Below, piece after piece: positions 51,323-63,135 of a DNA stretch of 64,000 bases (its first letter is position 1; each line of letters opens with the position of its first letter). The stretch is from a virus: positions 35,810-99,809 of the IMG/VR virus record IMGVR_UViG_3300034356_000609; one strand, 5' to 3'. The notes below the pieces were generated by a model, which saw nothing but the letters and a program-made list of their open reading frames with translations, was not told the DNA's origin and ran no database searches. Both the position numbers and the translations under genes were made by a program.

Positions 51323-51773
51323 ATAATTTATCTAGTCTTGTTTCTTTAAACTCTGCTAACCTAAGTCTTTGTTTCTGACTTACGGGCTTTTGAAATATAT
51401 CTAACTCTAAGAGCATGTCCATCTTCTGTATTCCTTGTTGATATACACTCTCAAAGTTGTCGTACATCTTTTTCATTAAAGTGTACTTACGTATTGTGTG
51501 ATATTTAGGAACTCTAAGCATGTAGGCCGTCAACTCTCGAAGCCGTACTACGTTACTATAAAGTATGTTAGGAATGCAGGCAGGATTTGCACGTAGTGAC
51601 CCTAATCCCTTTAAGTATATCTGCTTTGTTTCTGTTTTCTTGAGACCTCGGTAAATCTCGTCTATATAAAAAGAATACACAGCATCTACACTTCCACTTG
51701 TACAATTTAACTCTCGTGCAGCTAAACTATACAAACCAAATACCTTTATCTCTATTTGTAGTTCTTTTCTCAT
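51207..51773 (-). CDS. Possible IHF/HU-like DNA-binding protein
   Basis: 188 aa basic; QIYLKGLGSLRAN resembles the HU/IHF beta-arm motif. Confidence 0.45.
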   Translation of the reverse strand: MRKELQIEIKVFGLYSLAARELNCTSGSVDAVYSFYIDEIYRGLKKTETKQIYLKGLGSLRANPACIPNILYSNVVRLRELTAYMLRVPKYHTIRKYTLMKKMYDNFESVYQQGIQKMDMLLELDIFQKPVSQKQRLRLAEFKETRLDKLYESICRLHQVAEARSEKYGQDSGGNQHENLERIQFTKR

Positions 51774-52165
51774 GCAGGAACTTCAACAGTTTCTTTTACT
51801 TGAGGTTTAACTTCAGCAATTGATTCTTTCTTAGGTTTTCCGTTAGGTAGTTCCAAAGTAAAGTAAATAGTCAACTCACTACGTACGTCATTCTCTGGTT
51901 TAAGTTTAGGATTTATGTTATTCCTTAACAACAACTGCTGCTTACGAAGTTTGGTAATAGAGTTAGAAATTACCTGAATGCTAGTATTGAACTTTAATGC
52001 TATCTCCTTTTTTGTCTCTGAAGTCAATGCCTTTCTAAAAGAAGAGTATGCAAGAATAGTTACTGCTAAATCAGACAGTCTATAACCAGCAAGTCGCAGT
52101 AATACATCAATATAGTCTTTGTGTATTTGAATAGGATCTTGGTACTTACGAAGTAATTTTTTCAT
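51770..52165 (-). CDS. Winged helix-turn-helix DNA-binding protein
   Basis: LSDLAVTILAY...TKKEIALKFNTSIQVISNSITKLRKQQLL; first gene after a promoter. Confidence 0.65.
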   Translation of the reverse strand: MKKLLRKYQDPIQIHKDYIDVLLRLAGYRLSDLAVTILAYSSFRKALTSETKKEIALKFNTSIQVISNSITKLRKQQLLLRNNINPKLKPENDVRSELTIYFTLELPNGKPKKESIAEVKPQVKETVEVPA

Positions 52166-52189
52166 TGGGTTGGTTGTCTTTCAACAACA

Positions 52190-52219
52190 CAAAGATAGCT
52201 TCCTAATAAAAAAAGTCAA
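52190..52219 (-). promoter_or_regulatory. Bacteroidota sigma70-type promoter for the packaging operon
   Basis: Minus strand TTG-N19-TATCTTTG. Confidence 0.8.
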
Positions 52220-52274
52220 GTCCTATGTTATTCTTTTTAACTTAAACAATTAATAACCTAATGCATTAAGTTTA

Positions 52275-52718
52275 TTACTTGTATGTATTAACTGCACGCT
52301 GTAATGACTTTTGTATTGCTTTTGATATGGCCTTTTTATTGTGAGGAATAGCGGTAACCTCTACAAACATTGCATTAACATATATAGTTTGAGTAGATTC
52401 TCCTACTAATATCTTACCCGCCATGTTGACTTGGGTCTGCACAATATATTGTCTTTTTAGGAATTGGATTCCAATAATGTTGACTAATTGCTCAGGCATT
52501 GCTACAGAGTTAATATCTGCAGTTATAATCTGACCTGTATCACATAGACTGTAACCTTTAGAGATTATCTCTTCTAGGGTGGTTTGAATTCCAAATAACA
52601 GGGGTTTGTTTGCAATAGTTTGGACTGAGGAAGTGTTTGTTACAGTGTCTACTTTGTAACATTGTGCGGAAAGACTTAGAGTCAAGAGACAAGCGGAGAG
52701 TATAATGAGTTTTTTCAT
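52275..52718 (-). CDS. Exported protein, unknown function
   Basis: Sec signal peptide MKKLIILSACLLTLSLSA followed by Q, as is typical of Bacteroidota exported proteins. Confidence 0.7.
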   Translation of the reverse strand: MKKLIILSACLLTLSLSAQCYKVDTVTNTSSVQTIANKPLLFGIQTTLEEIISKGYSLCDTGQIITADINSVAMPEQLVNIIGIQFLKRQYIVQTQVNMAGKILVGESTQTIYVNAMFVEVTAIPHNKKAISKAIQKSLQRAVNTYK

Positions 52719-52720
52719 AG

Positions 52721-53704
52721 TTAATAAGTTACTTGAGATGAATACCCAGGGGCTATTAGGTAAAGGTTTAGAGTTCCTCCTGAGGTTAAAGTTGTTGTTG
52801 TGTACGTATTAACTCCAGGGTAAGTCGCACGTACGTTTGTCTTTGCAGCTTTAATAGCGTTGTATTCACTTAAAGTAAAGATACGAACATCAGGTGCTAT
52901 TCTCCACTTAGAGAATCTTCCAGCCTTTCTTGCTGCCACGTAATATTTATCGGCCACAGAGATTACCCCGTCATCGTTGACATCAAACATATGAAAGGAT
53001 AAACCGTTCCTAACAGTCTTGTTTAAGACTACATTAGATACTGCTTGGATGTCTGAGCTTGTGTAGGCTTGTACTCTAGTGGGAGCACTTATCTCTATGT
53101 AATATTCTTTAGAAGGGTCATAAGCCTCAGATATAGAATAGTAACCCGAAGAGTTAGTATAGATGGTTTTATATAGTGCCCAAGAAGAAGTAGTTACTAC
53201 ATAGTTAAATTCTAGCACATAAGGTAATGAAACATTGTTAGGTAAGTCATTCCACTTACCGTTAGACACAAATTGTACATAGTCTTCGTTACCTGCGTTG
53301 TTTGGTTCTCCAGAGTTCCAGTTTTTATAAGAGTAAGTTTCTCCTGTCACCCATCTCCAAGTCCCTTCTGTCACTTCATCTGTTAATCCTATCCATCCAG
53401 AAGGCCATATATTAAATATAAAACTTTGTTCAGCTGCAGTAGTAATAGTTACTAGATAACCACCCATAGCTGCACAGTTAGATCTAGCAGTAGTCCAAGT
53501 AGCAGTTCCTGTAGAACGATAATAAGAGTGTCCGTTATAGTTCTGCTGGTTGGTAAATCCTGTAATGGTTGAGTTAGTTCTTCTGTAAAGCTTTACAGCC
53601 ACATTAGAAGCACCAGAACCATTTGCGTTATACAAGTACCCCGAATAGTTAAATTGAGCTGTTAGAGAACTTGTAATAAAGAATAGAACGATTATCCATT
53701 TCAT
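52721..53704 (-). CDS. Exported C-type lectin domain protein with dockerin-like domain
   Basis: Signal peptide ending LTA-Q; YNGHSYY...WIGLTD...GEPNN...WNDL lectin motifs; DVNDDGVISVAD Ca-binding loop. Confidence 0.85.
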   Translation of the reverse strand: MKWIIVLFFITSSLTAQFNYSGYLYNANGSGASNVAVKLYRRTNSTITGFTNQQNYNGHSYYRSTGTATWTTARSNCAAMGGYLVTITTAAEQSFIFNIWPSGWIGLTDEVTEGTWRWVTGETYSYKNWNSGEPNNAGNEDYVQFVSNGKWNDLPNNVSLPYVLEFNYVVTTSSWALYKTIYTNSSGYYSISEAYDPSKEYYIEISAPTRVQAYTSSDIQAVSNVVLNKTVRNGLSFHMFDVNDDGVISVADKYYVAARKAGRFSKWRIAPDVRIFTLSEYNAIKAAKTNVRATYPGVNTYTTTTLTSGGTLNLYLIAPGYSSQVTY

Positions 53705-55149
53705 ATCTTAAGCTTACCTCCCATTAAGATTTGATAGTTAACTACATTTTGGTTTGCTATGTAAGTTCCTCCACCTGTAAGTCCAAACTTAAATGTCTTG
53801 GTGATTGAGTAGTTAATGTTTAAGAACGGAACCACTATGGGTTGACTCTCAAACAAACTCTCTGTATAGTATTTTGTGTAAGGAGCATAAACAGCCGCAG
53901 CAATAACAGTAGCGTCTAGATGTTTAGTAAGTTTTCCCTTATACATAAATCCCCCTATAATCATAGTAGAGATCATTTCTTCTTGAAATAACTGCCCGTA
54001 AGAACCTGCAGCCCCATAAAGTGCAGTAAAGTTCTTCATAGAGTTTACTCTTACAAAAAGTAAAGATGAAGTATAAGACTTAGGCATTAACCCTAATCCT
54101 GCTGAAAGTACATTAATGTGTTTATATCCCTTAGAGTTAGTTCCTATCCAAGATTTTATTGCTCCTATGTTTCCTATCTTAGCATTAACCATATAATCAG
54201 CAGACAACCCTAGAGACGCTGTGCCATCTCCTTTTACTTTAGTAAAAGACATGGTGCCTCTAGCATCTTGATTACTGCTTCGAGCTGTTTGGATTCCTAC
54301 GATATCCCCAGTAACTAAGATAGCAGGCTTTTGGGTCTCTACTTTACCCTTAGCAGCAGCCTTTGCCGTAGTACCTCCACCAGCTTGTTGGGTTTCGGTC
54401 TTTTGCTCCTCTACTTGTTCGGGAGTTTTTTCTTCAGGCTTTTTATCAGTTCCACCACCTGAACCACCCCCTCCGCCAGAACCATTGCTACCGTTGCCAG
54501 AAGAAGAACCAGAGCTACTCCCAGAGCTGCTCCCAGAACCACTAGAGCCGCTAGAATTATTATTTGCATTGCTTCCGTCATTATTTACTTGTCCTTCGGA
54601 CGACCCCACGGATCCTTGTCCAGATGATTGGTCACCTGAGTTAGAAGAATTCCCAGAAGTACTAGTAGTGTTATTACTTCCATCACCACTAGACTTGTCG
54701 TTCGATTTTCCATTTTTAGTACGTACATTAACTCCCGATGTCCCCGAAGTAGTAGTTCCTCCTACGGAAGTTCCAGAACCCAGAGAAGTCGAAGATAAGT
54801 CTAAACTCGTTAAAGAGTTCAAGGTCATTACATTATTTACTAAACCCATTACCGTATTGGTTGAGGTTGTAGTTGTAGTTGTGGCTAGTACACCATCACA
54901 AGGTTTGGTTGTACGGAAGTTTGTGTAAGTAGAATTTAACCAAGAGTCAAACGTACCATCTTGCAATTCTGTGTAAGAAAAAGCCCTTACTTGTCCATAG
55001 TACGACACCATTATAGGTGTGTTCATATCTGCACTAATGAACTTTAACTCCTTAGTGCAAGGGTCTGTGTAACTGTACATAAAGGACTGAGCTTTTAAAC
55101 TCAGTCCCATTATGACAAATAAAAGTAATATGTTAACTCTTAAAGACAC
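53701..55149 (-). CDS. Exported protein with Ser/Gly linker and probable outer-membrane beta-barrel
   Basis: Signal peptide ending LKA-Q; long S/G/N low-complexity linker; about 200 C-terminal residues of alternating amphipathic strands ending QILMGGKLKI. Confidence 0.65.
   Translation of the reverse strand: MSLRVNILLLFVIMGLSLKAQSFMYSYTDPCTKELKFISADMNTPIMVSYYGQVRAFSYTELQDGTFDSWLNSTYTNFRTTKPCDGVLATTTTTTSTNTVMGLVNNVMTLNSLTSLDLSSTSLGSGTSVGGTTTSGTSGVNVRTKNGKSNDKSSGDGSNNTTSTSGNSSNSGDQSSGQGSVGSSEGQVNNDGSNANNNSSGSSGSGSSSGSSSGSSSGNGSNGSGGGGGSGGGTDKKPEEKTPEQVEEQKTETQQAGGGTTAKAAAKGKVETQKPAILVTGDIVGIQTARSSNQDARGTMSFTKVKGDGTASLGLSADYMVNAKIGNIGAIKSWIGTNSKGYKHINVLSAGLGLMPKSYTSSLLFVRVNSMKNFTALYGAAGSYGQLFQEEMISTMIIGGFMYKGKLTKHLDATVIAAAVYAPYTKYYTESLFESQPIVVPFLNINYSITKTFKFGLTGGGTYIANQNVVNYQILMGGKLKI
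54450..54800. repeat. Low-complexity Ser/Gly-encoding tract
   Basis: Imperfect repeats such as ccagagctactc/ccagagctgctc encoding SSGSSSGSSSG...GGGGGSGGG. Confidence 0.7.
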
Positions 55150-55825
55150 CGTTCTTGATAAGGTTTTCGATCACTTTAGTTGTAGCAGTTTCAAGTGATT
55201 TACGAGTAGCCTTACCTACTGTGCTTTGCGAGAATTTCATTCCGTCTAGCGACTTTAAGAAAGATTCCCCTGTTTTAGTGGATTCTCCTTCTCCAGACCC
55301 AATAAAGATTTGACCTGTCTTTGCATCTACAAAACGAACCTGCAAACGGATAAAAGTAGTCACGACTACCTTTGCTTTAGCTCCTTCTACAGTCTCGTCT
55401 TCGTCAACGGCAAAGTCTGCAACTGTCACATACACAAAGTATTGTGCAGCTTTAATCTTTCCTTTACCATCAATAGGTTCTTCAAAAACTCCTTTTTTAG
55501 AAGCTTTGAATTGGGTTACCATCCTTTCCTTGATTTCTCCCTTCTCCTCAGTAAATACAAAACGATTTGTCTCATCTAAATAGTCTAATACGGATTCTGC
55601 AAAACCTAAGCCGACATTCTTCTCTTGTAAGTCAGGATACATAGCCAATACTTTGGTCATGTCCATACTGATTACTTGTACTGTTCTTTTAACAGAGTCA
55701 GTGTAACCAGACACAGTAGAAATGTCTGCTTTCTCAATAACCTCATCCTCGGTTGTGGTCTTCATAGAACCACAACCATAGATAAGAATTATTAATAGTA
55801 GGCTACCAAGGATCTGATTCCTCAT
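55133..55825 (-). CDS. CsgG/HfaB-like lipoprotein
   Basis: Start reassigned to MRNQILGSLLLIILIYGCG (lipobox Cys); TNRFVFTE...KIKAAQYFVYVTVADF...LQVRFVDAKTGQI is the CsgG/TolB-N-like pattern. Confidence 0.75.
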   Translation of the reverse strand: MRNQILGSLLLIILIYGCGSMKTTTEDEVIEKADISTVSGYTDSVKRTVQVISMDMTKVLAMYPDLQEKNVGLGFAESVLDYLDETNRFVFTEEKGEIKERMVTQFKASKKGVFEEPIDGKGKIKAAQYFVYVTVADFAVDEDETVEGAKAKVVVTTFIRLQVRFVDAKTGQIFIGSGEGESTKTGESFLKSLDGMKFSQSTVGKATRKSLETATTKVIENLIKNGVFKS

Positions 55826-56120
55826 CTGCTTGGGGTTTAGCGGCAGGAGCAGCAGGAGCAGGTGCTGGAGCAGCCTTCTCTTTAATGATGACAGTTTTAC
55901 CACCGCCACCAGTGTTTGCTTGTTGCTTCTGTTCGTTGTTCGTAGTGATGTTAATCACAGGTGCGGGAGCTGCTACTGCAGCTTGTGGTTCAGACTTCTC
56001 TTCCTCTCCACCTAAGTGGGTAGCAAACCATGCACCTCCAGCAGTAATTGCAGTAGTGATGGCTCCAATGATAGTCTTCTTTAAACCAGACATTCCGCCT
56101 TCTTCTTGTTCTTCTGACAT
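55803..56120 (-). CDS. Single-pass membrane protein with Pro/Ala-rich tail
   Basis: Start reassigned to MSEEQ; LKKTIIGAITTAITAGGAWF hydrophobic segment. Confidence 0.65.
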   Translation of the reverse strand: MSEEQEEGGMSGLKKTIIGAITTAITAGGAWFATHLGGEEEKSEPQAAVAAPAPVINITTNNEQKQQANTGGGGKTVIIKEKAAPAPAPAAPAAKPQADEESDPW

Positions 56121-56124
56121 AATA

Positions 56125-56475
56125 TTATGAATTAGTTGTGTTTGACAAAGATACACCATCCTCCTCATCAACTTTTTGGATCAACATTTTGTCCCTGTCT
56201 TCAGAGTTGAACCAGTAGTCAACTACTTTGTTCAAGTTACCTACAAAAGCTCCTAAGAGGATAAGCAACATTTCTTTCCAGTCTTCTCCAATGGATGCTC
56301 CTACAAAGACAGCAGCATTAATACCTACAATGATTAAGGTAAACAAACCTAACACAATGGCGGTAATTTTCCAACGATTAGCCTGCATCTGTTGCAACAT
56401 GTAGTAGAAACGATTGTTGTCTGCTACTACTACGGGTTCTGCTTGGCCAAAACCAAGTTTTTCTTTTAAGTTCAT
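56125..56475 (-). CDS. Two-pass membrane protein
   Basis: ITAIVLGLFTLIIVGINAAVFV and MLLILLGAFVGNL, followed by VVDYWF. Confidence 0.7.
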   Translation of the reverse strand: MNLKEKLGFGQAEPVVVADNNRFYYMLQQMQANRWKITAIVLGLFTLIIVGINAAVFVGASIGEDWKEMLLILLGAFVGNLNKVVDYWFNSEDRDKMLIQKVDEEDGVSLSNTTNS

Positions 56476-58361
56476 ATGATTAATAGTTTAGAGTCTAGGA
56501 CTTGTTTTTCTGTCTTTAACGTAAGGATGTAAACTCCGTCAGGTAATCTTTCTAAATCCACGCTGTACTTATAGTTTCCTATAGGCATGTGCTTGTCTAG
56601 GATATTTTGGACTAACTGACCTACCTCGTTGTATAAAGACAAGTTGACATCGGATTCTTCGGCTATCTTGAATTGTACTTGGATAGCACCTTCTGTGGGG
56701 TTTGGAAATGCCATTAGGTCACTTACTTGGTTAATAGATACCAATCCTTTTCTACGAACTTCTACTATGCCCATAGTAGGTGTAATGTTCATATCCTTAG
56801 CCTTGTTATCACCTACGTACTTTTCTGCTGTCCAAATAGCTGCTGTAGCCCAAGAGTCTTGTGGTTTTTTAGCAATGAACTGAAGAGTAAATACTTGTTC
56901 TCCGTCTTTTAATAGATTGGCATTTGTAAGGTCAGCTCCTCCCCAAGACACAACTCCATTAGAAGGATTTGTGTAGGCAGTCCACTTCATGATTTTTTCT
57001 GTTACTTCAATCTGTTTGAAAGACAAATAGGCAGTGTCGTATTTAAGGTCTAACTGAAGAGCAGTAAGGTCTTTGCCGTTAGTAATAACTTTTACTGGGA
57101 CATTTACTAGATTGCCGTCTTCCACTTTGACTTTAGGCATGTTTATCTCTACCGTCTCTAAAGTAGGATCGTCATAACTTACTGTTTTGTCAATGATGTA
57201 ATTCTTGGCATTTGCTTGGTTAACAATCTTAATAGGAGTCAAACGAGCACGTTTAAAACCTGTTTGGTTAGCATCTCCCCTTACGTTGATGTAGTAAGAG
57301 ATAGAATCTTTTCCGTCAATACTATAAGTAAAGTTGGTTACGCCTGTGTAAGTAGAAGTAAGGTTTGTAGCTGAACCATTGATTGAGTTAAATTCTGATA
57401 CGGTAAAGAATAAGATATCTTTCTTAGAGTTAGGCCAAGAAGTAAATCTCCCCGCCAAACGACCATACACACCGTATACGTCAGCAATAGTAATCAATCC
57501 GTCAGAACCGTTTACGTCAAAAGAGTAATAATCAAATCCTGTAGGTGTGTATTGACCTAGTATAGATTGGTTAATCTTCTGTGCATCTGCAGTTGAATAT
57601 ACGGCACCAGGAGTCATTGTATCTCCTTTGAGAACCATTCTTACATCCCAATAGGTTGTATCTAAGAATTTACGGAAGACAACAACGCCAGTAGAGTTTG
57701 TTGCTTTGGCTTCTACTTGAGTCCAAGAACCTGTAGGAGATTTCTTTTCTAAAGACACCCAAAGATTCTTAGCGTCTGTTCCCGTAGTGTTCATAAACTT
57801 AGCAGCAAAACGTAGAACTTTCTGATTAAAACGTCCACCATAAGAGTAAACTACCAATGTAGTATCGTTACCCCAGTTAGTAGCAGCTCTGTTAGAAAAT
57901 GATTTTACACCTGCTACTTTTAACGTCTTAATAGAATCTAAGTTGTTAAATACAGCTTCGGCAGCGTGAGTAAAGGTTAAATCAAATGTAGCACCGTTAG
58001 AATAGTTAAAAGTAGAACTAGACCCTGTGTAAGCTAGAGTTACAGTTAAGAATCCCTGTACGTTACTATCTACGTACTGAAGATACTGGTCTGAAGTAGA
58101 GATTTTTAGACTAGGCACAACAGCAGTAAAAGCTGTATTATCATAGAATACACGGAACTGCATACCTGTAATCTTCTCACTAGTAGAAGTGTTATAGAAA
58201 TGCAAGGGTGCTACTGTTTGCCCTACTGTAGTAGTAGCTACTTGATAACCTGAGTCAATTACGACCCAATGACCCGTGCCAGGAGAAGTACTAGCACTCT
58301 GTCCAAAGAGGCTAGCTGTAAGTAGGAATAACCCTACTAGAAGCGATTGTATTTTTTTCAT
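56472..58361 (-). CDS. Exported cohesin/dockerin-like protein with T9SS type A C-terminal sorting domain
   Basis: Signal peptide ending LFG-Q; two cohesin-like segments (ITGMQFRVFYDNT; VNVPVKV...LTALQLDLKYDTAYL...LQFIAK); DVNGSDGLITIAD loop; C-terminal FPNPT...LYNEVGQLV...LPDGVYIL...KLLII. Confidence 0.85.
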   Translation of the reverse strand: MKKIQSLLVGLFLLTASLFGQSASTSPGTGHWVVIDSGYQVATTTVGQTVAPLHFYNTSTSEKITGMQFRVFYDNTAFTAVVPSLKISTSDQYLQYVDSNVQGFLTVTLAYTGSSSTFNYSNGATFDLTFTHAAEAVFNNLDSIKTLKVAGVKSFSNRAATNWGNDTTLVVYSYGGRFNQKVLRFAAKFMNTTGTDAKNLWVSLEKKSPTGSWTQVEAKATNSTGVVVFRKFLDTTYWDVRMVLKGDTMTPGAVYSTADAQKINQSILGQYTPTGFDYYSFDVNGSDGLITIADVYGVYGRLAGRFTSWPNSKKDILFFTVSEFNSINGSATNLTSTYTGVTNFTYSIDGKDSISYYINVRGDANQTGFKRARLTPIKIVNQANAKNYIIDKTVSYDDPTLETVEINMPKVKVEDGNLVNVPVKVITNGKDLTALQLDLKYDTAYLSFKQIEVTEKIMKWTAYTNPSNGVVSWGGADLTNANLLKDGEQVFTLQFIAKKPQDSWATAAIWTAEKYVGDNKAKDMNITPTMGIVEVRRKGLVSINQVSDLMAFPNPTEGAIQVQFKIAEESDVNLSLYNEVGQLVQNILDKHMPIGNYKYSVDLERLPDGVYILTLKTEKQVLDSKLLII

Positions 58362-58813
58362 GGTTTGTATAATTGTACTTTATCATAAGCATTTGCCGTT
58401 AACCATGGCTCTGGGGTTGGTAGTTTTTGTATGAAGGATAACTCGTACACATAGCATTTATACTCTTCTTCCTTCTCAGTTAAGAATCTATTTTCTATCA
58501 TAAATAGTAAATGGAGACTCTCGTGAACTATTACAGCCGCTAAGTTATTGATTGAGTTTAACTTAATGTCTGCATCTGCTATGAGTATGGTATATTGACC
58601 TTCTAATATACCATTGGAAGAAAAAGAACTTTTCCAAAAGTCAACACGATGGCATACCTTCTTTAGAACTGCATACTTACTAGAGTCAACAGTTCGTAAT
58701 AATTGTATGGCCGAGTCGACTTTTAAATCCCAACCGTCCCCTGCTTTGGCTATAACTTGAGCCTTACAAGGAACGGTTAAGAGTATTAAAAGACTGATAA
58801 ACAGTCTAAACAT
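58358..58813 (-). CDS. Exported zincin-like metallopeptidase
   Basis: Signal peptide ending CKA-Q; IVHESLH (HExxH) with downstream EEE. Confidence 0.7.
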   Translation of the reverse strand: MFRLFISLLILLTVPCKAQVIAKAGDGWDLKVDSAIQLLRTVDSSKYAVLKKVCHRVDFWKSSFSSNGILEGQYTILIADADIKLNSINNLAAVIVHESLHLLFMIENRFLTEKEEEYKCYVYELSFIQKLPTPEPWLTANAYDKVQLYKP

Positions 58814-59448
58814 TATTTCTTGGCAGCTTTCTTAGCCTCACCTTTTGCTTTGTCTGCTGCAATAAAATCACCAGACTCAATCAAAGTATAAGTAAAAGAA
58901 TTACCATGAATCCCACGAGCTTGTTTGCAAAGTTCCAAAAACTGATTAAAGTCCTTTTCTCTCTTAAATACCTGACAACCCTCACTCCAATTCTCAACAT
59001 AGGTAGAATCTGCACCAGCCTTGTGGATGTTGATACCGAAAATACCTTCTTGGATTTTAGACTCGTCATAAGTCATATCCTTGTTGGCATCTCTGTATAC
59101 TTTTACGTTAGCTTTTTGCTTAAGAGCTTCGTATTTGCCTTGGTGTAATGCAATATGATGTGAACCTCTGTATTGACCTGGAACCAAACGAGCAACACCT
59201 GCTGCGTTGTGAAACTCTTTTACACCTTTAGTACCTGGATCAGTGGTCGCTTGCCATTGGTGAAACTGCCAAACTCCCTTGAGTTTGTAAGCAACAGTCA
59301 TAGTGTCGTCAAATAGATTAGTAACATCGTTACCAGTAGAAGAGTTACGTACTCCGATGATATTAATATCGTAGTCCTTTGTTCCGTCAAAGTAAACATA
59401 GCCCTTGGCTTTTACTGCGGCTTCAATTTGTTCTCTAGTATAATTCAT
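58813..59448 (-). CDS. Putative endolysin, L,D-transpeptidase (YkuD)-like
   Basis: GINIH...WSEGCQV His/Cys motif; directly follows a holin-like gene. Confidence 0.7.
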   Translation of the reverse strand: MNYTREQIEAAVKAKGYVYFDGTKDYDINIIGVRNSSTGNDVTNLFDDTMTVAYKLKGVWQFHQWQATTDPGTKGVKEFHNAAGVARLVPGQYRGSHHIALHQGKYEALKQKANVKVYRDANKDMTYDESKIQEGIFGINIHKAGADSTYVENWSEGCQVFKREKDFNQFLELCKQARGIHGNSFTYTLIESGDFIAADKAKGEAKKAAKK

Positions 59449-59453
59449 GATTA

Positions 59454-59717
59454 TTAAGATTCAGTGGTTTCAGAAGAGTTAGATGCTTCAGGCTTCTTCA
59501 TGATCTTTTCAACCGAAGTCAAACCCAAACAACCGAACGCAAGTAATGCAACAGCATCTACTAATGGAACAGAAGGTGCAAAGTGAGCTTCAGTAAATGA
59601 ATTAGCGTACAAAGTAGCGCACAGAGTCAATGTGCAAAATAAGCCGCACAAACGTTTCATGGAGACATTACCCTTCTCGTCTTTGAAAAGGCCTCCAATA
59701 AAGTTTAGAAATTTCAT
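59454..59717 (-). CDS. Putative holin
   Basis: 87 aa, two hydrophobic segments, charged C-terminus, upstream of the endolysin. Confidence 0.55.
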   Translation of the reverse strand: MKFLNFIGGLFKDEKGNVSMKRLCGLFCTLTLCATLYANSFTEAHFAPSVPLVDAVALLAFGCLGLTSVEKIMKKPEASNSSETTES

Positions 59718-59740
59718 AAGTATAGTTTTTTGTTCAAGAA

Positions 59741-59770
59741 CAAAAATAAACTATTGAAAAAATAAGTCAA
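59741..59770 (-). promoter_or_regulatory. Bacteroidota sigma70-type promoter for the lysis/surface cassette
   Basis: Minus strand TTG-N19-TATTTTTG. Confidence 0.8.
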
Positions 59771-59778
59771 GTGCTTTA

Positions 59779-61476
59779 TTAATCTAATCTAAGGAAAGCT
59801 TCTAACTGTTCTCCTGTTGTTTGAGGAGTGGCTACATTCTTTAATCTCATTCCTATACTATCTGCTGTAGTTATGTTTGCTACTAAGTAATCCCAAACAG
59901 AAGCAGCGGTTAATACTGCGTTTCCAAAAGTATTATCTACAGGAATTCCAAAGGTTACTTGGTTTGCAGTAGGCATATTTAAAGTACCTGTTAAAGTAGC
60001 AAAAGCATAAAGTACACCTAATCTTACGTCTGTTGGATTAGGACTATCACTAGAAGCTGAGGGAGAAATGAATCTTTTAGTTGGGGCTACAACATTTGGG
60101 AAATTTAAACCTCCTGTTGAATTGTCTCTAAATTCTATGTATGTAGTTGTACTAGGAATTAAATGATAACGTGTAACCCAAAGAGGACTATATCCATAGG
60201 GGGAGTGAATAAACGGTCCAGAAAATAAATTAATTGTACTTCCACTAGGGGCATAAATAGTACATATATTCCCAGTTGAACTTATAGGACCAATAATTCT
60301 AAGCACAGCAGAAGTATAAACCAAAAGTCCTAATTGACTTCCTCCAAAACCAATTACAGGACCTGTAATATTAACAGTACAAAAAACAGTAAGCTCAAAT
60401 GGAAAGCTTACTTTTCCTAAAGTTAAAGTACCTGTCATATTAAAAGTACAGTTGCCTGTAATAGTACAAGCTTTCATGTCTGCCTCATTAACTTGAGTGA
60501 CATCTCCTGTTATGTTTATAGTAGGAGTAGAAGAAATATAAAGCATATTTCCACCTGTAGCACTTGAAGTCCAAGGTCTAATTGAACCTACAATATTTAT
60601 AGTTCCTGTGTTTAGAATATTGTAGATTGTTGTGTTTCCTCCTTGAGTTGTAGCTAAAGCAATATTAATATTTAAAGTACCTGCTCCATTAATTTGAAAA
60701 GTATTTCCTCCTGTAGAAGCGCGTAAAATAGGAGAAGTTATAGTGCTTGTTGTTCCTGCCCCACCTGTCCAGTTTAATATATTTACGTTAGAAGCTTCTA
60801 TAGAAACTGTGCAATTAACATTTACATTAGGAGCCAAGATAAAATTACCTCCAGTAACAGCGTTCTGAGCATCCTGAGAAGTTTCAAATAATCTTAATTC
60901 GGATATTGCAACATAATTAGTACTTAAACTTGCAGTAATATAAATTCTATAGCGAGTATAAGCTGTTGTATTAGTAAAAGTTCTAACATAAGGAAGTAAT
61001 TGAGAAGGAGATCCTACGTTAGTATCTAGCACAATCCAATTTGTCCCATCCCAAGCTTGAAATTGCCAGTTTGTAGGACGATCCCCATTATAAGTAGAAT
61101 TTTGAAGTGAATACCCTATAATAACTTTAGGACTAGAAAACTCATACTGTAACCACTCAGGTAACGGTCTCCCATTTTGACCAATCCAATGGGTCGTAAT
61201 ATTATTATCAAAAGCTCTCCAAGGCTGATAAGTATTATCGTCATATCTAGTTAGTGAACTTGCTATACCAGAAGGAGTAGTATATCCAGTCATCGTAGGA
61301 ACAGCACTTAACCCGAAGAATTCTTTATTAGACAAAGTAGCAACTGTTGCATTTTCATCTAAAGTCACCGTATATCCATTAGCAACTACAGTGTCTCCCG
61401 CAACAGGTTTTGTTCCTGTGTGCCATATAGCATTATTTGAAAAATTTCCACTTGCTATTGCTACTTTGATTGCCAT
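59779..61476 (-). CDS. Putative receptor-binding protein with discoidin (F5/8 type C)-like domain, paralog A
   Basis: WRAFDNN...WLQYEF...RPTNWQFQAWDGTNW...YRIYIT...ISELRLF; beta-helix-like INIxG repeats. Confidence 0.7.
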   Translation of the reverse strand: MAIKVAIASGNFSNNAIWHTGTKPVAGDTVVANGYTVTLDENATVATLSNKEFFGLSAVPTMTGYTTPSGIASSLTRYDDNTYQPWRAFDNNITTHWIGQNGRPLPEWLQYEFSSPKVIIGYSLQNSTYNGDRPTNWQFQAWDGTNWIVLDTNVGSPSQLLPYVRTFTNTTAYTRYRIYITASLSTNYVAISELRLFETSQDAQNAVTGGNFILAPNVNVNCTVSIEASNVNILNWTGGAGTTSTITSPILRASTGGNTFQINGAGTLNINIALATTQGGNTTIYNILNTGTINIVGSIRPWTSSATGGNMLYISSTPTINITGDVTQVNEADMKACTITGNCTFNMTGTLTLGKVSFPFELTVFCTVNITGPVIGFGGSQLGLLVYTSAVLRIIGPISSTGNICTIYAPSGSTINLFSGPFIHSPYGYSPLWVTRYHLIPSTTTYIEFRDNSTGGLNFPNVVAPTKRFISPSASSDSPNPTDVRLGVLYAFATLTGTLNMPTANQVTFGIPVDNTFGNAVLTAASVWDYLVANITTADSIGMRLKNVATPQTTGEQLEAFLRLD

Positions 61477-61482
61477 AATTTG

Positions 61483-63135
61483 TTACGGATTATTATTTAA
61501 TGTGGTTTGAATTTGTACTCCAGTAGTCTCAACCGTAGCAGCGTTTTTAACTCTTCGACCTATACTGTTTGAAGTGTTTATGGAAGTCAAAGGGACAGCC
61601 CAAATAGCGGTAGGGTCAAGGACTGCTGTTCCTACTGTGTTGTCTACAGGTACGTTGTTAGCTACATTAGAAGGGGAAGGCACTATCATAGTTCCTGTTA
61701 ATGCTCCAGAAGAATAAGAAACCCCTTGTCTTACGTTATTAGGACTAGGAGCATCCGCAACTGTATCAGGACTAACTAATCTTGTTGAAGGAGGTTGTAC
61801 AGCTGGAGGTAATGCTCCATTAGTACTACTGTCCCTAAATTCCATATAAGAGTTAAAAGTTGGTATTAGGTGCATCCTTGAAATTAGCAATGGACTAATA
61901 CCATTTACTGAAAATATAAAAGGACCTGATAACAAAGTACTTGCGGCACTATCATAATTATTAGAAATTACTACGTTTCCAGAATTATTTAAAGCTGTTG
62001 CATTAAGAGTCCCAATAACACTTAATAGTCCTGAATTATTTTGAATTAAAGAAGCAGCAGCAAAAAATTTGTGAAATACATTTCCAACAATTTCACATCG
62101 AGAACTAGTATTAATAGAAATAGCAACTTGGGAACTACTTCCAATAAATAGGTTAGAAGTTACACTTCCTGTAATATAACACAAAGCAACGCTATTCAAT
62201 GATAAACAACCCCCACCACCTTCAAAACCTCCTTCTATATCTCCTGTAATATTAATACTACACTGGGCACTAGTACTAATAGCAAATCCCGTAGTTAAAG
62301 AATTTCGAGAGGCTATAATTCTACCTACAATATTAATAGTTGGATTACCTGCTGAAACTACAATCCCATTAGAAGCACTATATTTAATTATGTTTCCTAT
62401 TAAATTATAAGTACCTGCCGTAGTAAATGTGAGTAGTGTTGATCCTGATAAAAATCCAGCTTGAGTACAAGTAATAGTAACCCCAGGATTAACGGTAAAA
62501 GTTCCTCCTAAAACACTTGGTGTATTTCTGTCTCCTACATTTTGTAGGTGCATATCCCCAATAGAAGTATAAGACTGTCCGTTATTGGTTGTTATGTTAA
62601 TTCGGTACTTTTTATAAGCTGTTGTATTGGTAAAAGTACCTGTGTAGGAAAGAGCTGTATTACTTGTAACCGTGTGTAATACTACCCAAGCTGAACCACT
62701 CCACCCCTCAAATGTCCAGTCTCTAGGCATGTTACTTAGATTATTTTGGTAGGTTCTAAGTATAATATACTGATTGATTGCTTTAGGAGTTTTAAACTCG
62801 TAAGCAAGCCAAGCTGCAGGAAACCCGTTTGGGCTAATCCAACCTTCACCTAAACCATAGTTAAAATCAAAAGCTTTCCACGCTACATAAGATTCACCAC
62901 TGTCGAACTCTCCGCTTGTAGTAACTGCACAATCCCCCACAATGTAAGTTCGCATTGGAGGTACTGCGCTAGGGGGGTGAACAATGTTTGTAATACACTC
63001 TACAGTAACACTTTGATCTATGTTAACTGTAAATCCATTAGAAGCCACAATATCAGTAGCAGTAGGAATTGTACCTCCCTCCCAGATTGCTGGATTGCTC
63101 CAGTTACCACTAGCTATTGCAACTTTTAATCCCAT
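61483..63135 (-). CDS. Putative receptor-binding protein with discoidin (F5/8 type C)-like domain, paralog B
   Basis: WKAFDFN...WLAYEF...PRDWTFEGWSGSAW...YRINIT; N- and C-termini closely similar to paralog A. Confidence 0.7.
   Translation of the reverse strand: MGLKVAIASGNWSNPAIWEGGTIPTATDIVASNGFTVNIDQSVTVECITNIVHPPSAVPPMRTYIVGDCAVTTSGEFDSGESYVAWKAFDFNYGLGEGWISPNGFPAAWLAYEFKTPKAINQYIILRTYQNNLSNMPRDWTFEGWSGSAWVVLHTVTSNTALSYTGTFTNTTAYKKYRINITTNNGQSYTSIGDMHLQNVGDRNTPSVLGGTFTVNPGVTITCTQAGFLSGSTLLTFTTAGTYNLIGNIIKYSASNGIVVSAGNPTINIVGRIIASRNSLTTGFAISTSAQCSINITGDIEGGFEGGGGCLSLNSVALCYITGSVTSNLFIGSSSQVAISINTSSRCEIVGNVFHKFFAAASLIQNNSGLLSVIGTLNATALNNSGNVVISNNYDSAASTLLSGPFIFSVNGISPLLISRMHLIPTFNSYMEFRDSSTNGALPPAVQPPSTRLVSPDTVADAPSPNNVRQGVSYSSGALTGTMIVPSPSNVANNVPVDNTVGTAVLDPTAIWAVPLTSINTSNSIGRRVKNAATVETTGVQIQTTLNNNP

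Follow-up and report, generated by a model that had tools for sequence, protein, structure and literature searches.

The stretch of viral DNA analysed here (64,000 nucleotides, hereafter the window), which corresponds to bases 35810-99809 of the 99.8-kb virus record IMGVR_UViG_3300034356_000609 (CheckV completeness, 86%), contains a cassette of genes for exported proteins. Two of these, a scaffold of 629 amino acids (aa) and a lectin of 327 aa, share a module that is predicted to combine a β-sandwich with a dockerin-like insert. On balance, we think it probable that the cassette encodes a three-tier stack of anchor, adaptor, and head, which displays on, or releases from, the infected Bacteroidota cell an exchangeable carbohydrate-binding head. 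A first-pass annotation, made from the DNA letters alone, had drawn attention to the shared domain; both peptides that it quoted are present in the listed open reading frames of 629 and 327 aa, and its coordinates stop at 57720, near residue 214 within the 629-aa gene, which itself extends to 58361.

The scaffold consists, in order, of a signal peptide (recognised by eye, with Q21 invariant in an alignment of 14 sequences), an N-terminal cohesin (N-cohesin), the sandwich-dockerin module (hereafter also the plug), a conserved connector, a C-terminal cohesin (C-cohesin), and a type A sorting domain of the type IX secretion system (T9SS). The connector between plug and C-cohesin is about 35 residues long. 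The features of the two genes are as follows, with residue numbers referring to the encoded protein.

56472..58361, minus strand: scaffold gene, an open reading frame of 629 aa, its family conserved over the full length in 14 sequences (28-91% identity)
57807..58289, minus strand: N-terminal cohesin of the scaffold, about residues 25-185, predicted docking site for the lectin module
57246..57779, minus strand: shared module of the scaffold, about residues 195-372, a predicted transthyretin-like β-sandwich with an inserted dockerin-like element
57426..57608, minus strand: dockerin-like insert of the scaffold, about residues 252-312, placed by VIA-align, the degenerate first loop starting near residue 246
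56766..57149, minus strand: C-terminal cohesin of the scaffold, residues 405-532 (Pfam PF00963; E 2.2e-11; 44.6 bits against a gathering score of 24.1)
56478..56708, minus strand: T9SS type A sorting domain of the scaffold, residues 552-628 (PF18962, 45.9 bits against 27; TIGR04183, 41.5 against 23)
52721..53704, minus strand: lectin gene, an open reading frame of 327 aa encoding a signal peptide, the first sandwich strands, the head, and the rest of the sandwich with the insert
53216..53503, minus strand: C-type lectin head, residues 68-163 (Pfam Lectin_C, PF00059; 67.4 bits against 22.6)
52724..53197, minus strand: shared module of the lectin, residues 170-327, recognised by BLASTP to the scaffold module
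52913..53065, minus strand: dockerin-like insert of the lectin (about residues 214-264), predicted to make contact with the cohesin and holding an invariant calcium loop

The module shared by scaffold and lectin

The homology of the two domains, which the first-pass annotation had asserted, was borne out by BLASTP (44 of 132 positions identical, 33%; E 2e-17; scaffold residues 210-341 against lectin residues 172-298). When all six frames of the 99.8-kb record were searched with the 629-aa protein, the sole other match was the 327-aa gene (E 7.6e-19; query residues 209-369), and the homology is therefore specific to the scaffold and lectin genes. It spans about 130-160 residues, exceeding the motif that had been quoted, within a module of about 175 aa. 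The module family is narrow, since a phmmer search with scaffold residues 195-345 against 1.84 billion representatives gave 66 proteins at E ≤ 1e-3. In a Pfam scan that took in 30 of these 66 relatives, six were scaffold-like (cohesin and/or Por_Secre_tail), three carried Lectin_C, two PA14, two Laminin_G_3 (one of them also Lectin_C), and one each Mtd_N, DUF4815, and Ig_7, with 13 matching no family. Two of the 30 are true multi-Dockerin_1 proteins (P0167, 3e-6; P0181, 2.4e-4), in which the stretch aligned with the module comprises a loop, a helix, a linker, and a calcium loop. The relative with Mtd_N, P0155 (266 aa), combines this tail-fibre attachment domain with the sandwich-dockerin module and has no signal peptide; because of this pairing, the module may sit on the virion in some phages.

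The AlphaFold model of the scaffold module (53-row alignment; predicted local distance difference test score (pLDDT), 88.2; predicted template-modelling score (pTM), 0.78) contains three helices in dockerin order. When this model was compared with 48,161 chains by VIA-align, dockerins matched at model residues 63-123 and sandwich folds across residues 3-172, the sandwich matches including 3e8v_A (Z 5.6) and transthyretins (Z 5.0-5.2). Dockerins make up nine of the 50 rows: 4fl4_A is the best (Z 5.5; root-mean-squared deviation, 2.1 Å; 58 of 68 residues aligned), followed by 4dh2_D (5.5, 2.6 Å, 60 aligned), 2ccl_B (5.4, 2.2 Å, 54), 5m2o_B (5.3, 3.5 Å, 64), 5nrk_B (5.1, 2.7 Å, 59), and four lower ones, and the matches cover most of each dockerin. 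The best Foldseek rows for the first 60 residues of the module are also transthyretin-like sandwiches, all of them above E 1e-3. As for the calcium loops, the second loop of the lectin-type modules has the pattern D-x-N-x-D-x(6)-D, in which D241, N243, D245, and D252 are invariant in 30 of 30 sequences, and in the second loop of the scaffolds D282, N284, and D294 are invariant in 14 sequences.

We regard the insert as dockerin-like because of the many VIA-align matches, their near-complete coverage of the small dockerins, and the sequence links. As modelled, the insert has a dockerin-like fold, a three-helix unit nested in a loop of the β-sandwich, and the shared plug as a whole is, in the same model, a transthyretin/CarboxypepD_reg-like sandwich carrying a dockerin-like pair of loop-helix segments in one loop. 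The multi-Dockerin_1 relatives, the VIA-align fold, and the invariant calcium loop thus agree with the earlier description of the shared domain as dockerin-like.

The cohesins of the scaffold and the predicted docking of the lectin

The N-terminal domain of the scaffold matched the Pfam cohesin family PF00963 with a score under the gathering score (22.3 bits against 24.1; E 1.7e-4; residues 43-157 on profile positions 9-125 of 139). The AlphaFold model of this domain (pLDDT, 83.2; pTM, 0.77) gave 58 Foldseek matches at E ≤ 1e-3, and all of the 39 rows shown are cohesins, with template-modelling (TM) scores of about 0.6. The top match is 3ghp_A (8.4e-7), and type II cohesins, many of them solved together with X-dockerins, rank first. 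As modelled, the N-terminal domain has the cohesin β-sandwich fold. The C-cohesin being visible to Pfam, the N-cohesin by its fold, and the dockerin by the shared module, the proposal that the 629-aa protein carries two cohesins and a dockerin of its own stands. The two cohesins differ strongly from each other (hhalign probability, 18.9%; E 1.2e-3), and the scaffold therefore does not offer two clearly equivalent sites. Judged by its sorting domain and signal peptide, the scaffold is a predicted T9SS type A cargo; NCBIfam contributed the sorting domain only. A sequence search of the PDB with the 629-aa protein returned only matches to photosystem II D1 at chance level (E 0.04-0.8), which were rejected.

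The complex of scaffold residues 22-545 with the mature lectin was predicted in three runs, with our own alignments and three controls. The interface score ipSAE was 0.68, 0.66, and 0.64 in the three runs and 0.00 for the best control; the ipSAE mark is reached by 116 of 157 solved complexes and by 2 of 215 mismatched pairs, counts that are rough owing to the use of our own alignments. The runs share at least 98% of the contacts, with a partner pLDDT of at least 86. The lectin is predicted to make contact through residues 216-229 and 243-263, which comprise both dockerin helices as well as the calcium loop. The predicted contacts of the scaffold are residues 65-68, 93, 95-97, 106, 108-116, 155-156, 158-161, and 164-167, all in the N-cohesin and none in the Pfam-visible C-cohesin; they belong to the third, fifth, sixth, and eighth strands of the model, which we take to be the cohesin face used in solved complexes. 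Conservation is higher at these predicted contacts than elsewhere in the N-cohesin (0.67 against 0.54; one-sided Mann-Whitney p 0.0018), and Q68, Y111, G113, G164, and D166 among them are invariant. The prediction supports docking of the lectin dockerin on the N-cohesin of the scaffold.

The head of the lectin contains the motifs EPN and WND, conserved in lectin-type relatives, which are presumably those of a mannose-type calcium/sugar site. That the lectin has no T9SS tail, as had been noted at first reading, holds as far as searched, with no Por_Secre_tail match at E ≤ 0.1 for the whole protein or at E ≤ 10 for its last 163 residues; as that annotation suggested, the lectin might leave the cell through a CsgG-like pore, by piggy-backing, or on lysis.

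Split scaffolds, exchangeable heads, and genomic setting

The cassette was found in three phage lineages, namely, the crAss-like podovirus of the window, a myovirus, and a 254-kb phage-like contig (L085). The myovirus is Flavobacterium phage vB_FspM_immuto_2-6A (MW353175; hereafter immuto; 160 kb), whose host is Flavobacterium sp. LMO8 and in which the cassette comprises genes 13-19, including a lectin with 49% identity and homologues of the 122-, 258-, 482-, and 147-aa proteins described below; no homologue of the 116-aa protein was present in the 12 kb read. Its record annotates only 'cohesin domain-containing' and 'lectin C-type domain-containing' proteins, and neither a dockerin nor a system. 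In immuto the scaffold is divided into gene 14 (363 aa), an adaptor of N-cohesin and plug with 31% identity to the corresponding scaffold half, and gene 15 (243 aa), an anchor of C-cohesin and sorting domain with 27% identity, the cut falling exactly between plug and C-cohesin. The split halves therefore allow a 1:1:1 stack and make a polymer of the scaffold with itself impossible. Further split forms, of 363-368 aa, are P0125 and P0140. The contig L085, which also carries phage topoisomerase II, tail-collar, endolysin, and Tad6 genes, has a collinear cassette with another head and an extra barrel-like protein, and this cassette adjoins the endolysin gene.

A locus search with the scaffold alignment gave two loci, both on phage-like or short contigs, and a scaffold homologue is present on every one of 80 viral contigs that the 258-aa protein retrieved. 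The cassette also occurs, with a scaffold 76% identical, on a contig of 16.5 kb (L084; RFPL01000028.1) that had been assigned to a Sphingomonadaceae metagenome-assembled genome and is probably a mis-binned phage contig. Among 400 further Bacteroidota genomes sampled, 12 had weak matches (E 2.5e-11 to 2.8e-6), and the cassette was in none. These matches lie in large proteins; nine of the 12 hit the sandwich-dockerin part of the model and three its last positions. Five of the nine stretches were read (L087, L088, L089, L092, and L093), and each has a CarboxypepD_reg-like sandwich followed by a dockerin-like sequence ('GGVN..DAL ... ADVNN.G.I...DAL'). Four of the five lie in open frames of 1,100-2,300 residues, and the stretch in L088 belongs to a frame of 213 residues at the end of its contig. 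The sandwich-dockerin stretch of L092 is preceded by a cohesin-like sequence. The host phylum may have its own non-cellulosomal cohesin-dockerin proteins of such build, and the module was probably borrowed from it, since Bacteroidota genomes carry these sandwich-dockerin stretches.

The head of the plug-bearing protein varies between loci. In the lectin, in the PA14-headed proteins, and in those with an unnamed head, the head is inserted after the first sandwich strands ('F.YSGY.YNA.G.GA.NV.VKLY'); in the GEVED-headed proteins, the sandwich is uninterrupted and the head stands in front. We defined a slot between the homologues of the 482-aa and 147-aa proteins, both neighbours being in view in 73 loci. 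The slot contains exactly one plug-bearing protein in 72 of the 73 loci, as detected with a hidden Markov model of the module, and the sole exception is immuto, in which the lectin gene is elsewhere in the cassette. The slot proteins fall into the following classes.

327-328 aa: 31 loci, C-type lectin, assigned by a full-length tblastn match to the window lectin and not by Pfam
397-401 aa: 20 loci, no Pfam family (two examples scanned)
355-359 aa: 12 loci, GEVED (two examples scanned)
383 aa: 7 loci, PA14 (one example scanned)
265 aa: 1 locus (L044), C-type lectin with an internal deletion
389 aa: 1 locus (L085), no Pfam family

Head types vary among otherwise close phages, the loci including L005, L014, L031, L044, L063, L082, and L085. 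Since 72 of the 73 slots hold one plug-bearing protein and several head types occur there, the heads are swapped on a constant plug among close relatives.

The other genes of the cassette and the gene upstream are the following.

58813-59448, minus strand: endolysin-like gene, just upstream of the exported run (phrog_3000, 6.6e-36; endolysin phrog_33083, 2.2e-10)
58358..58813, minus strand: HESLH-containing exported protein of 151 aa, encoded immediately upstream of the scaffold
56125..56475, minus strand: 116-aa membrane protein with two segments, the most conserved cassette gene
55803..56171, minus strand: protein of 122 aa, with a single membrane segment and a tail rich in Pro and Ala (homologues in immuto, 60% identity over 52 aa, and L085, 42%)
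55133..55909, minus strand: 258-aa exported protein with a faint likeness to CsgG/LpoB/TolB_N (44% identical in immuto, 52% in L085)
53701..55149, minus strand: 482-aa exported protein with a small N-terminal domain, a long Ser/Gly/Thr-rich linker, and a C-terminal β-rich domain
52275..52718, minus strand: 147-aa exported protein, the last cassette gene (homologues in immuto, 27%, and L085, 33%), present in 73 of the 83 loci compared

The 116-aa protein is 85% identical in L085, compared with 44% for the scaffold, and has 2076 relatives at E ≤ 1e-3, on contigs of up to 373 kb. Of the 120 relatives listed, 119 are unnamed or called 'hypothetical protein' and one is a SpoIIM-like membrane protein, so that none has an informative name. 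Its conservation suggests a conserved host target. The 258-aa protein scored under the threshold for Pfam CsgG (PF03783; 14.2 bits against 20.8; E 0.028) and had atlas feature matches to CsgG clusters at 0.93, which serve as a lead only. Its open reading frame, as listed, opens at a GTG in the overlap with the preceding gene; because relatives (e.g., L003, 2638-3351; L085, 10692-11402) align only from about residue 25-45, an internal Met near residue 29 is probably the actual start. The window copy has a Cys after the leader and is possibly a lipoprotein; this cysteine is absent from two of the three homologues read, and the signal peptides of the immuto and L085 copies are of the ordinary kind, with Ala-Gln at their end and no lipobox cysteine at the cleavage site. 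The 482-aa protein, with homologues in immuto (24%) and L085 (26%), matched no Pfam, PHROGs, or NCBIfam family; its C-terminal domain looks by eye like an outer-membrane barrel, and this part has a match to one porin cluster at 0.93 in the atlas, again as a lead only. The 151-aa protein possibly belongs to the cassette: tblastn matches of 46-82% identity stand beside the scaffold gene in many viral loci, and the protein has no family match. Its HESLH is a zincin-like motif, and at the same position L085 has an unrelated small HEYTH protein with a weak match to the DUF6782 metallopeptidase family. In PHROGs, neither scaffold nor lectin matched a family, and the same was true of the 482-, 147-, 122-, and 151-aa proteins.

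All long open reading frames of the window are on the minus strand, and the run of exported proteins is located between the lysis genes and the terminase, with transcription from high to low coordinates. From the endolysin-like gene, the order is 151 aa (HESLH), 629, 116, 122, 258, 482, 327, and 147 aa. The gene immediately before the endolysin-like one (59454-59717) encodes a protein of 87 aa that has two hydrophobic segments, and the two look like a holin-endolysin pair, which the cassette adjoins without a gap. In PHROGs, the 668-aa protein is the terminase large subunit (phrog_6681, 2.1e-94) and the 815-aa protein the portal (phrog_6547, 5e-98); relatives of the terminase include those of Cellulophaga phages and many crAss-like phages. 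The source is a crAss-like phage of Bacteroidota. A prophage or bacterial chromosome was rejected in view of the 99.8-kb virus record with crAss-type terminase and portal. In the 629-, 327-, 482-, 147-, and 151-aa proteins, Gln directly follows the hydrophobic leader (LFGQ, TAQ, KAQ, and SAQ), as it does in most immuto homologues of the cassette proteins. This fits the Q-rule for exported proteins of Bacteroidetes (PMC5837995) and indicates a Bacteroidota host; phages of a Bacteroidota host are described as encoding Q-rule proteins (PMC10367356).

Two paralogous tail proteins of 565 and 550 aa (59779-63135), which match tail PHROG 17517, contain F5/8 type C (discoidin) domains, and on account of these domains the virion also seems to be glycan-reading. 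A promoter and terminator scan of positions 51500-60000 gave 14 and 4 sites, compared with 20.9 and 5.0 in shuffled sequences, Bacteroidota promoters lying outside the models of the scan. No glycoside hydrolase or carbohydrate-binding module family was found by Pfam in the 12 proteins scanned around the cassette; a cellulosome was rejected, the cassette being without enzymes and carbohydrate-binding modules.

Alternative assemblies and relation to known systems

In the favoured three-tier stack, the scaffold would be exported by Sec and then by the host T9SS, and the plug of the lectin would dock on the N-cohesin through the usual cohesin face, as predicted. The plug of the scaffold itself would bind the C-cohesin, intramolecularly in the fused scaffold and from one protein to the other in immuto, because the immuto split falls between these two parts and the adaptor has no other visible attachment. 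Anchor, adaptor, and head would then display an exchangeable carbohydrate-binding head without forming a branching network. The EPN and WND motifs (in their presumed meaning), the swapping of heads, and a location next to the lysis genes suggest, speculatively, binding of surface glycans; likely uses might be the binding of such glycans, the masking of receptors, or a sticky coat on infected cells or debris. Of the network capped by lectin subunits that the first-pass annotation envisaged, the lectin docking is supported by the complex prediction; the branching is not, in view of the split scaffold of immuto and of cohesins so barely alike in hhalign that branching from equivalent sites is unlikely.

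A number of observations weigh against the stack. The complex score may stem from likeness to solved cohesin-dockerin complexes. No difference at the N-cohesin contacts sets loci in which the head-bearing protein has the helix KYYVAARKAGRF apart from those in which it has VYLVYAKIIGRA (mean difference at the contacts, 0.135, against 0.191 for the rest; p 0.97), a covariation result that we take as uninformative because the contact residues hardly vary. The motif VYLVYAKIIGRA, that of GEVED-type plugs, resembles the helix VYGVYGRLAGRF of the scaffold itself, which makes separate partners for the two plugs a weak argument, and self-association of the scaffold through its N-cohesin is possible. 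As to the dockerin identity, a Z of 5.5 falls in the uncertain range of VIA-align and possibly reflects a common arrangement, and Foldseek on the module gave nothing at E ≤ 1e-3 (best dockerin, 4uyp_B; E 0.08; TM score by target, 0.69). The gathering score of Dockerin_1 (PF00404; 22.9) was reached neither by the lectin module (14.6 bits; E 0.039) nor by a PA14-headed relative (17.1), and the scaffold module gave no Dockerin_1 match. The first calcium loop is degenerate in both proteins ('GDTM..G' in scaffolds, no ligands in the lectin), and the second loop of the immuto adaptor lacks one ligand too. Finally, P0155, being tail-fibre-like and without a signal peptide, hints at another use of the plug.

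The low dockerin scores, the degenerate calcium loop, the occurrence of the module on P0155, and the weak matches in large proteins of 12 of the 400 Bacteroidota genomes would all suit a module that acts as a structural or calcium-binding stalk, or as a glycan- or envelope-binding unit, spread by domain shuffling, with an ancestral likeness to dockerins and no cohesin bound. We consider this unlikely, because, wherever a cassette was seen, the module came together with a scaffold bearing cohesins (72 of 73 loci, and immuto) and the complex prediction (0.66 against 0.00 for the controls) places a canonical interface on conserved residues. A head-to-tail polymer at the cell surface, its scaffolds joined plug to cohesin from one molecule to the next and every subunit bearing a lectin, seems decidedly improbable to us: the split form of immuto keeps the whole cassette and cannot polymerise with itself, and the conserved connector could permit binding within one chain. 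The fused protein has the parts that such a chain needs, two cohesins and one plug, its dockerin helix is like the one in GEVED-headed proteins, which take the place of the lectin in the slot and whose presumed docking site is the N-cohesin, and no covariation separates the specificities. A variation on the stack, to which we give very little probability, has the same complex as a soluble or post-lysis product, coating debris, vesicles, or neighbouring cells, either because the sorting domain releases it or because lectin and adaptor meet the scaffold at lysis. Type A sorting-domain cargo can be released, the lectin and the immuto adaptor have no sorting domain, and the cassette adjoins an endolysin gene in both the window and L085; the conserved envelope proteins of 258, 482, and 147 aa suggest instead a dedicated route or anchor in the living cell.

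The stack of anchor, adaptor, and head thus remains our preferred reading. A wider proposal, which we put forward tentatively and with more doubt than conviction, is a portable cohesin-dockerin display carried by phages of aquatic Bacteroidota, with a T9SS-armed cell surface and swappable lectin heads, forming a virus-encoded organelle that masks the receptor or glues cells, and with the nested dockerin as a new orthogonal class. If so, receptor masking would exclude superinfection and spare progeny from debris, and gluing would link infected cells to fresh hosts or particles. Provided that the binding is true, lytic phages would rebuild the host surface with a modular adhesin kit, shared through transfer by a crAss-like podovirus, a myovirus, and the phage-like contig of 254 kb, and head exchange would be a readable record of the glycans that matter in phage-host pairs; a cultured pair, phage immuto on Flavobacterium sp. 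LMO8, is at hand. As an orthogonal pair, the nested dockerin and the divergent cohesin might also find use in protein assembly.

Assemblies of cohesins with dockerins have been described in cellulosomes and in a few further bacterial complexes, and non-cellulosomal cohesin and dockerin modules have been surveyed across the three domains of life. A literature search found no description of a phage-encoded or T9SS-linked cohesin-dockerin system, subscription journals lying outside its coverage. A close parallel is with the cellulosomal type II cohesin/X-dockerin systems (Clostridium thermocellum SdbA-CipA; Acetivibrio cellulolyticus ScaA/ScaB), in which the dockerin is likewise braced by a neighbouring β-sandwich and the hierarchy likewise runs from anchoring scaffoldin through adaptor to cargo; the model of the phage N-cohesin is closest to type II cohesins (3ghp_A, 3fnk, 5k39_A, and 4wi0_A), and that of the insert to solved dockerins. 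In contrast to X-dockerins, the phage dockerin is nested inside the sandwich rather than placed after an X module, and only one of its calcium loops is intact. Unlike cellulosomes, the cassette has lectin-type heads (C-type lectin, PA14, GEVED, and Laminin_G_3) and not enzymes as cargo, would be anchored by a T9SS sorting domain and not by surface-layer homology domains or sortase, and lies on phage genomes. The glycoside hydrolase complexes of Clostridium perfringens, whose cohesins (2vo8, 2jh2_C, and 2w1n) are among the fold matches of the N-cohesin, likewise join secreted proteins outside cellulose degradation; these systems join enzymes or toxins in a Gram-positive bacterium, whereas the phage cassette is virus-encoded and, in a host that is diderm, would couple lectin heads with a T9SS cargo.

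Within the phages themselves, immuto differs from the window in being an unrelated myovirus with a scaffold split into two genes and with the lectin gene first rather than sixth. The Bordetella phage protein Mtd is an exchangeable receptor-binding head of the tail fibre with a C-type lectin fold. As in such tail fibres, the attachment part of the cassette proteins stays constant while the carbohydrate-binding head varies, being exchanged between close relatives, and one relative of the plug (P0155) carries Mtd_N. In contrast to them, the cassette proteins are probably not built into virions in the cytoplasm, because they have signal peptides and are exported. The type of assembly is itself known, and is proposed here in a phage-borne, T9SS-linked, and lectin-displaying form with a nested dockerin.

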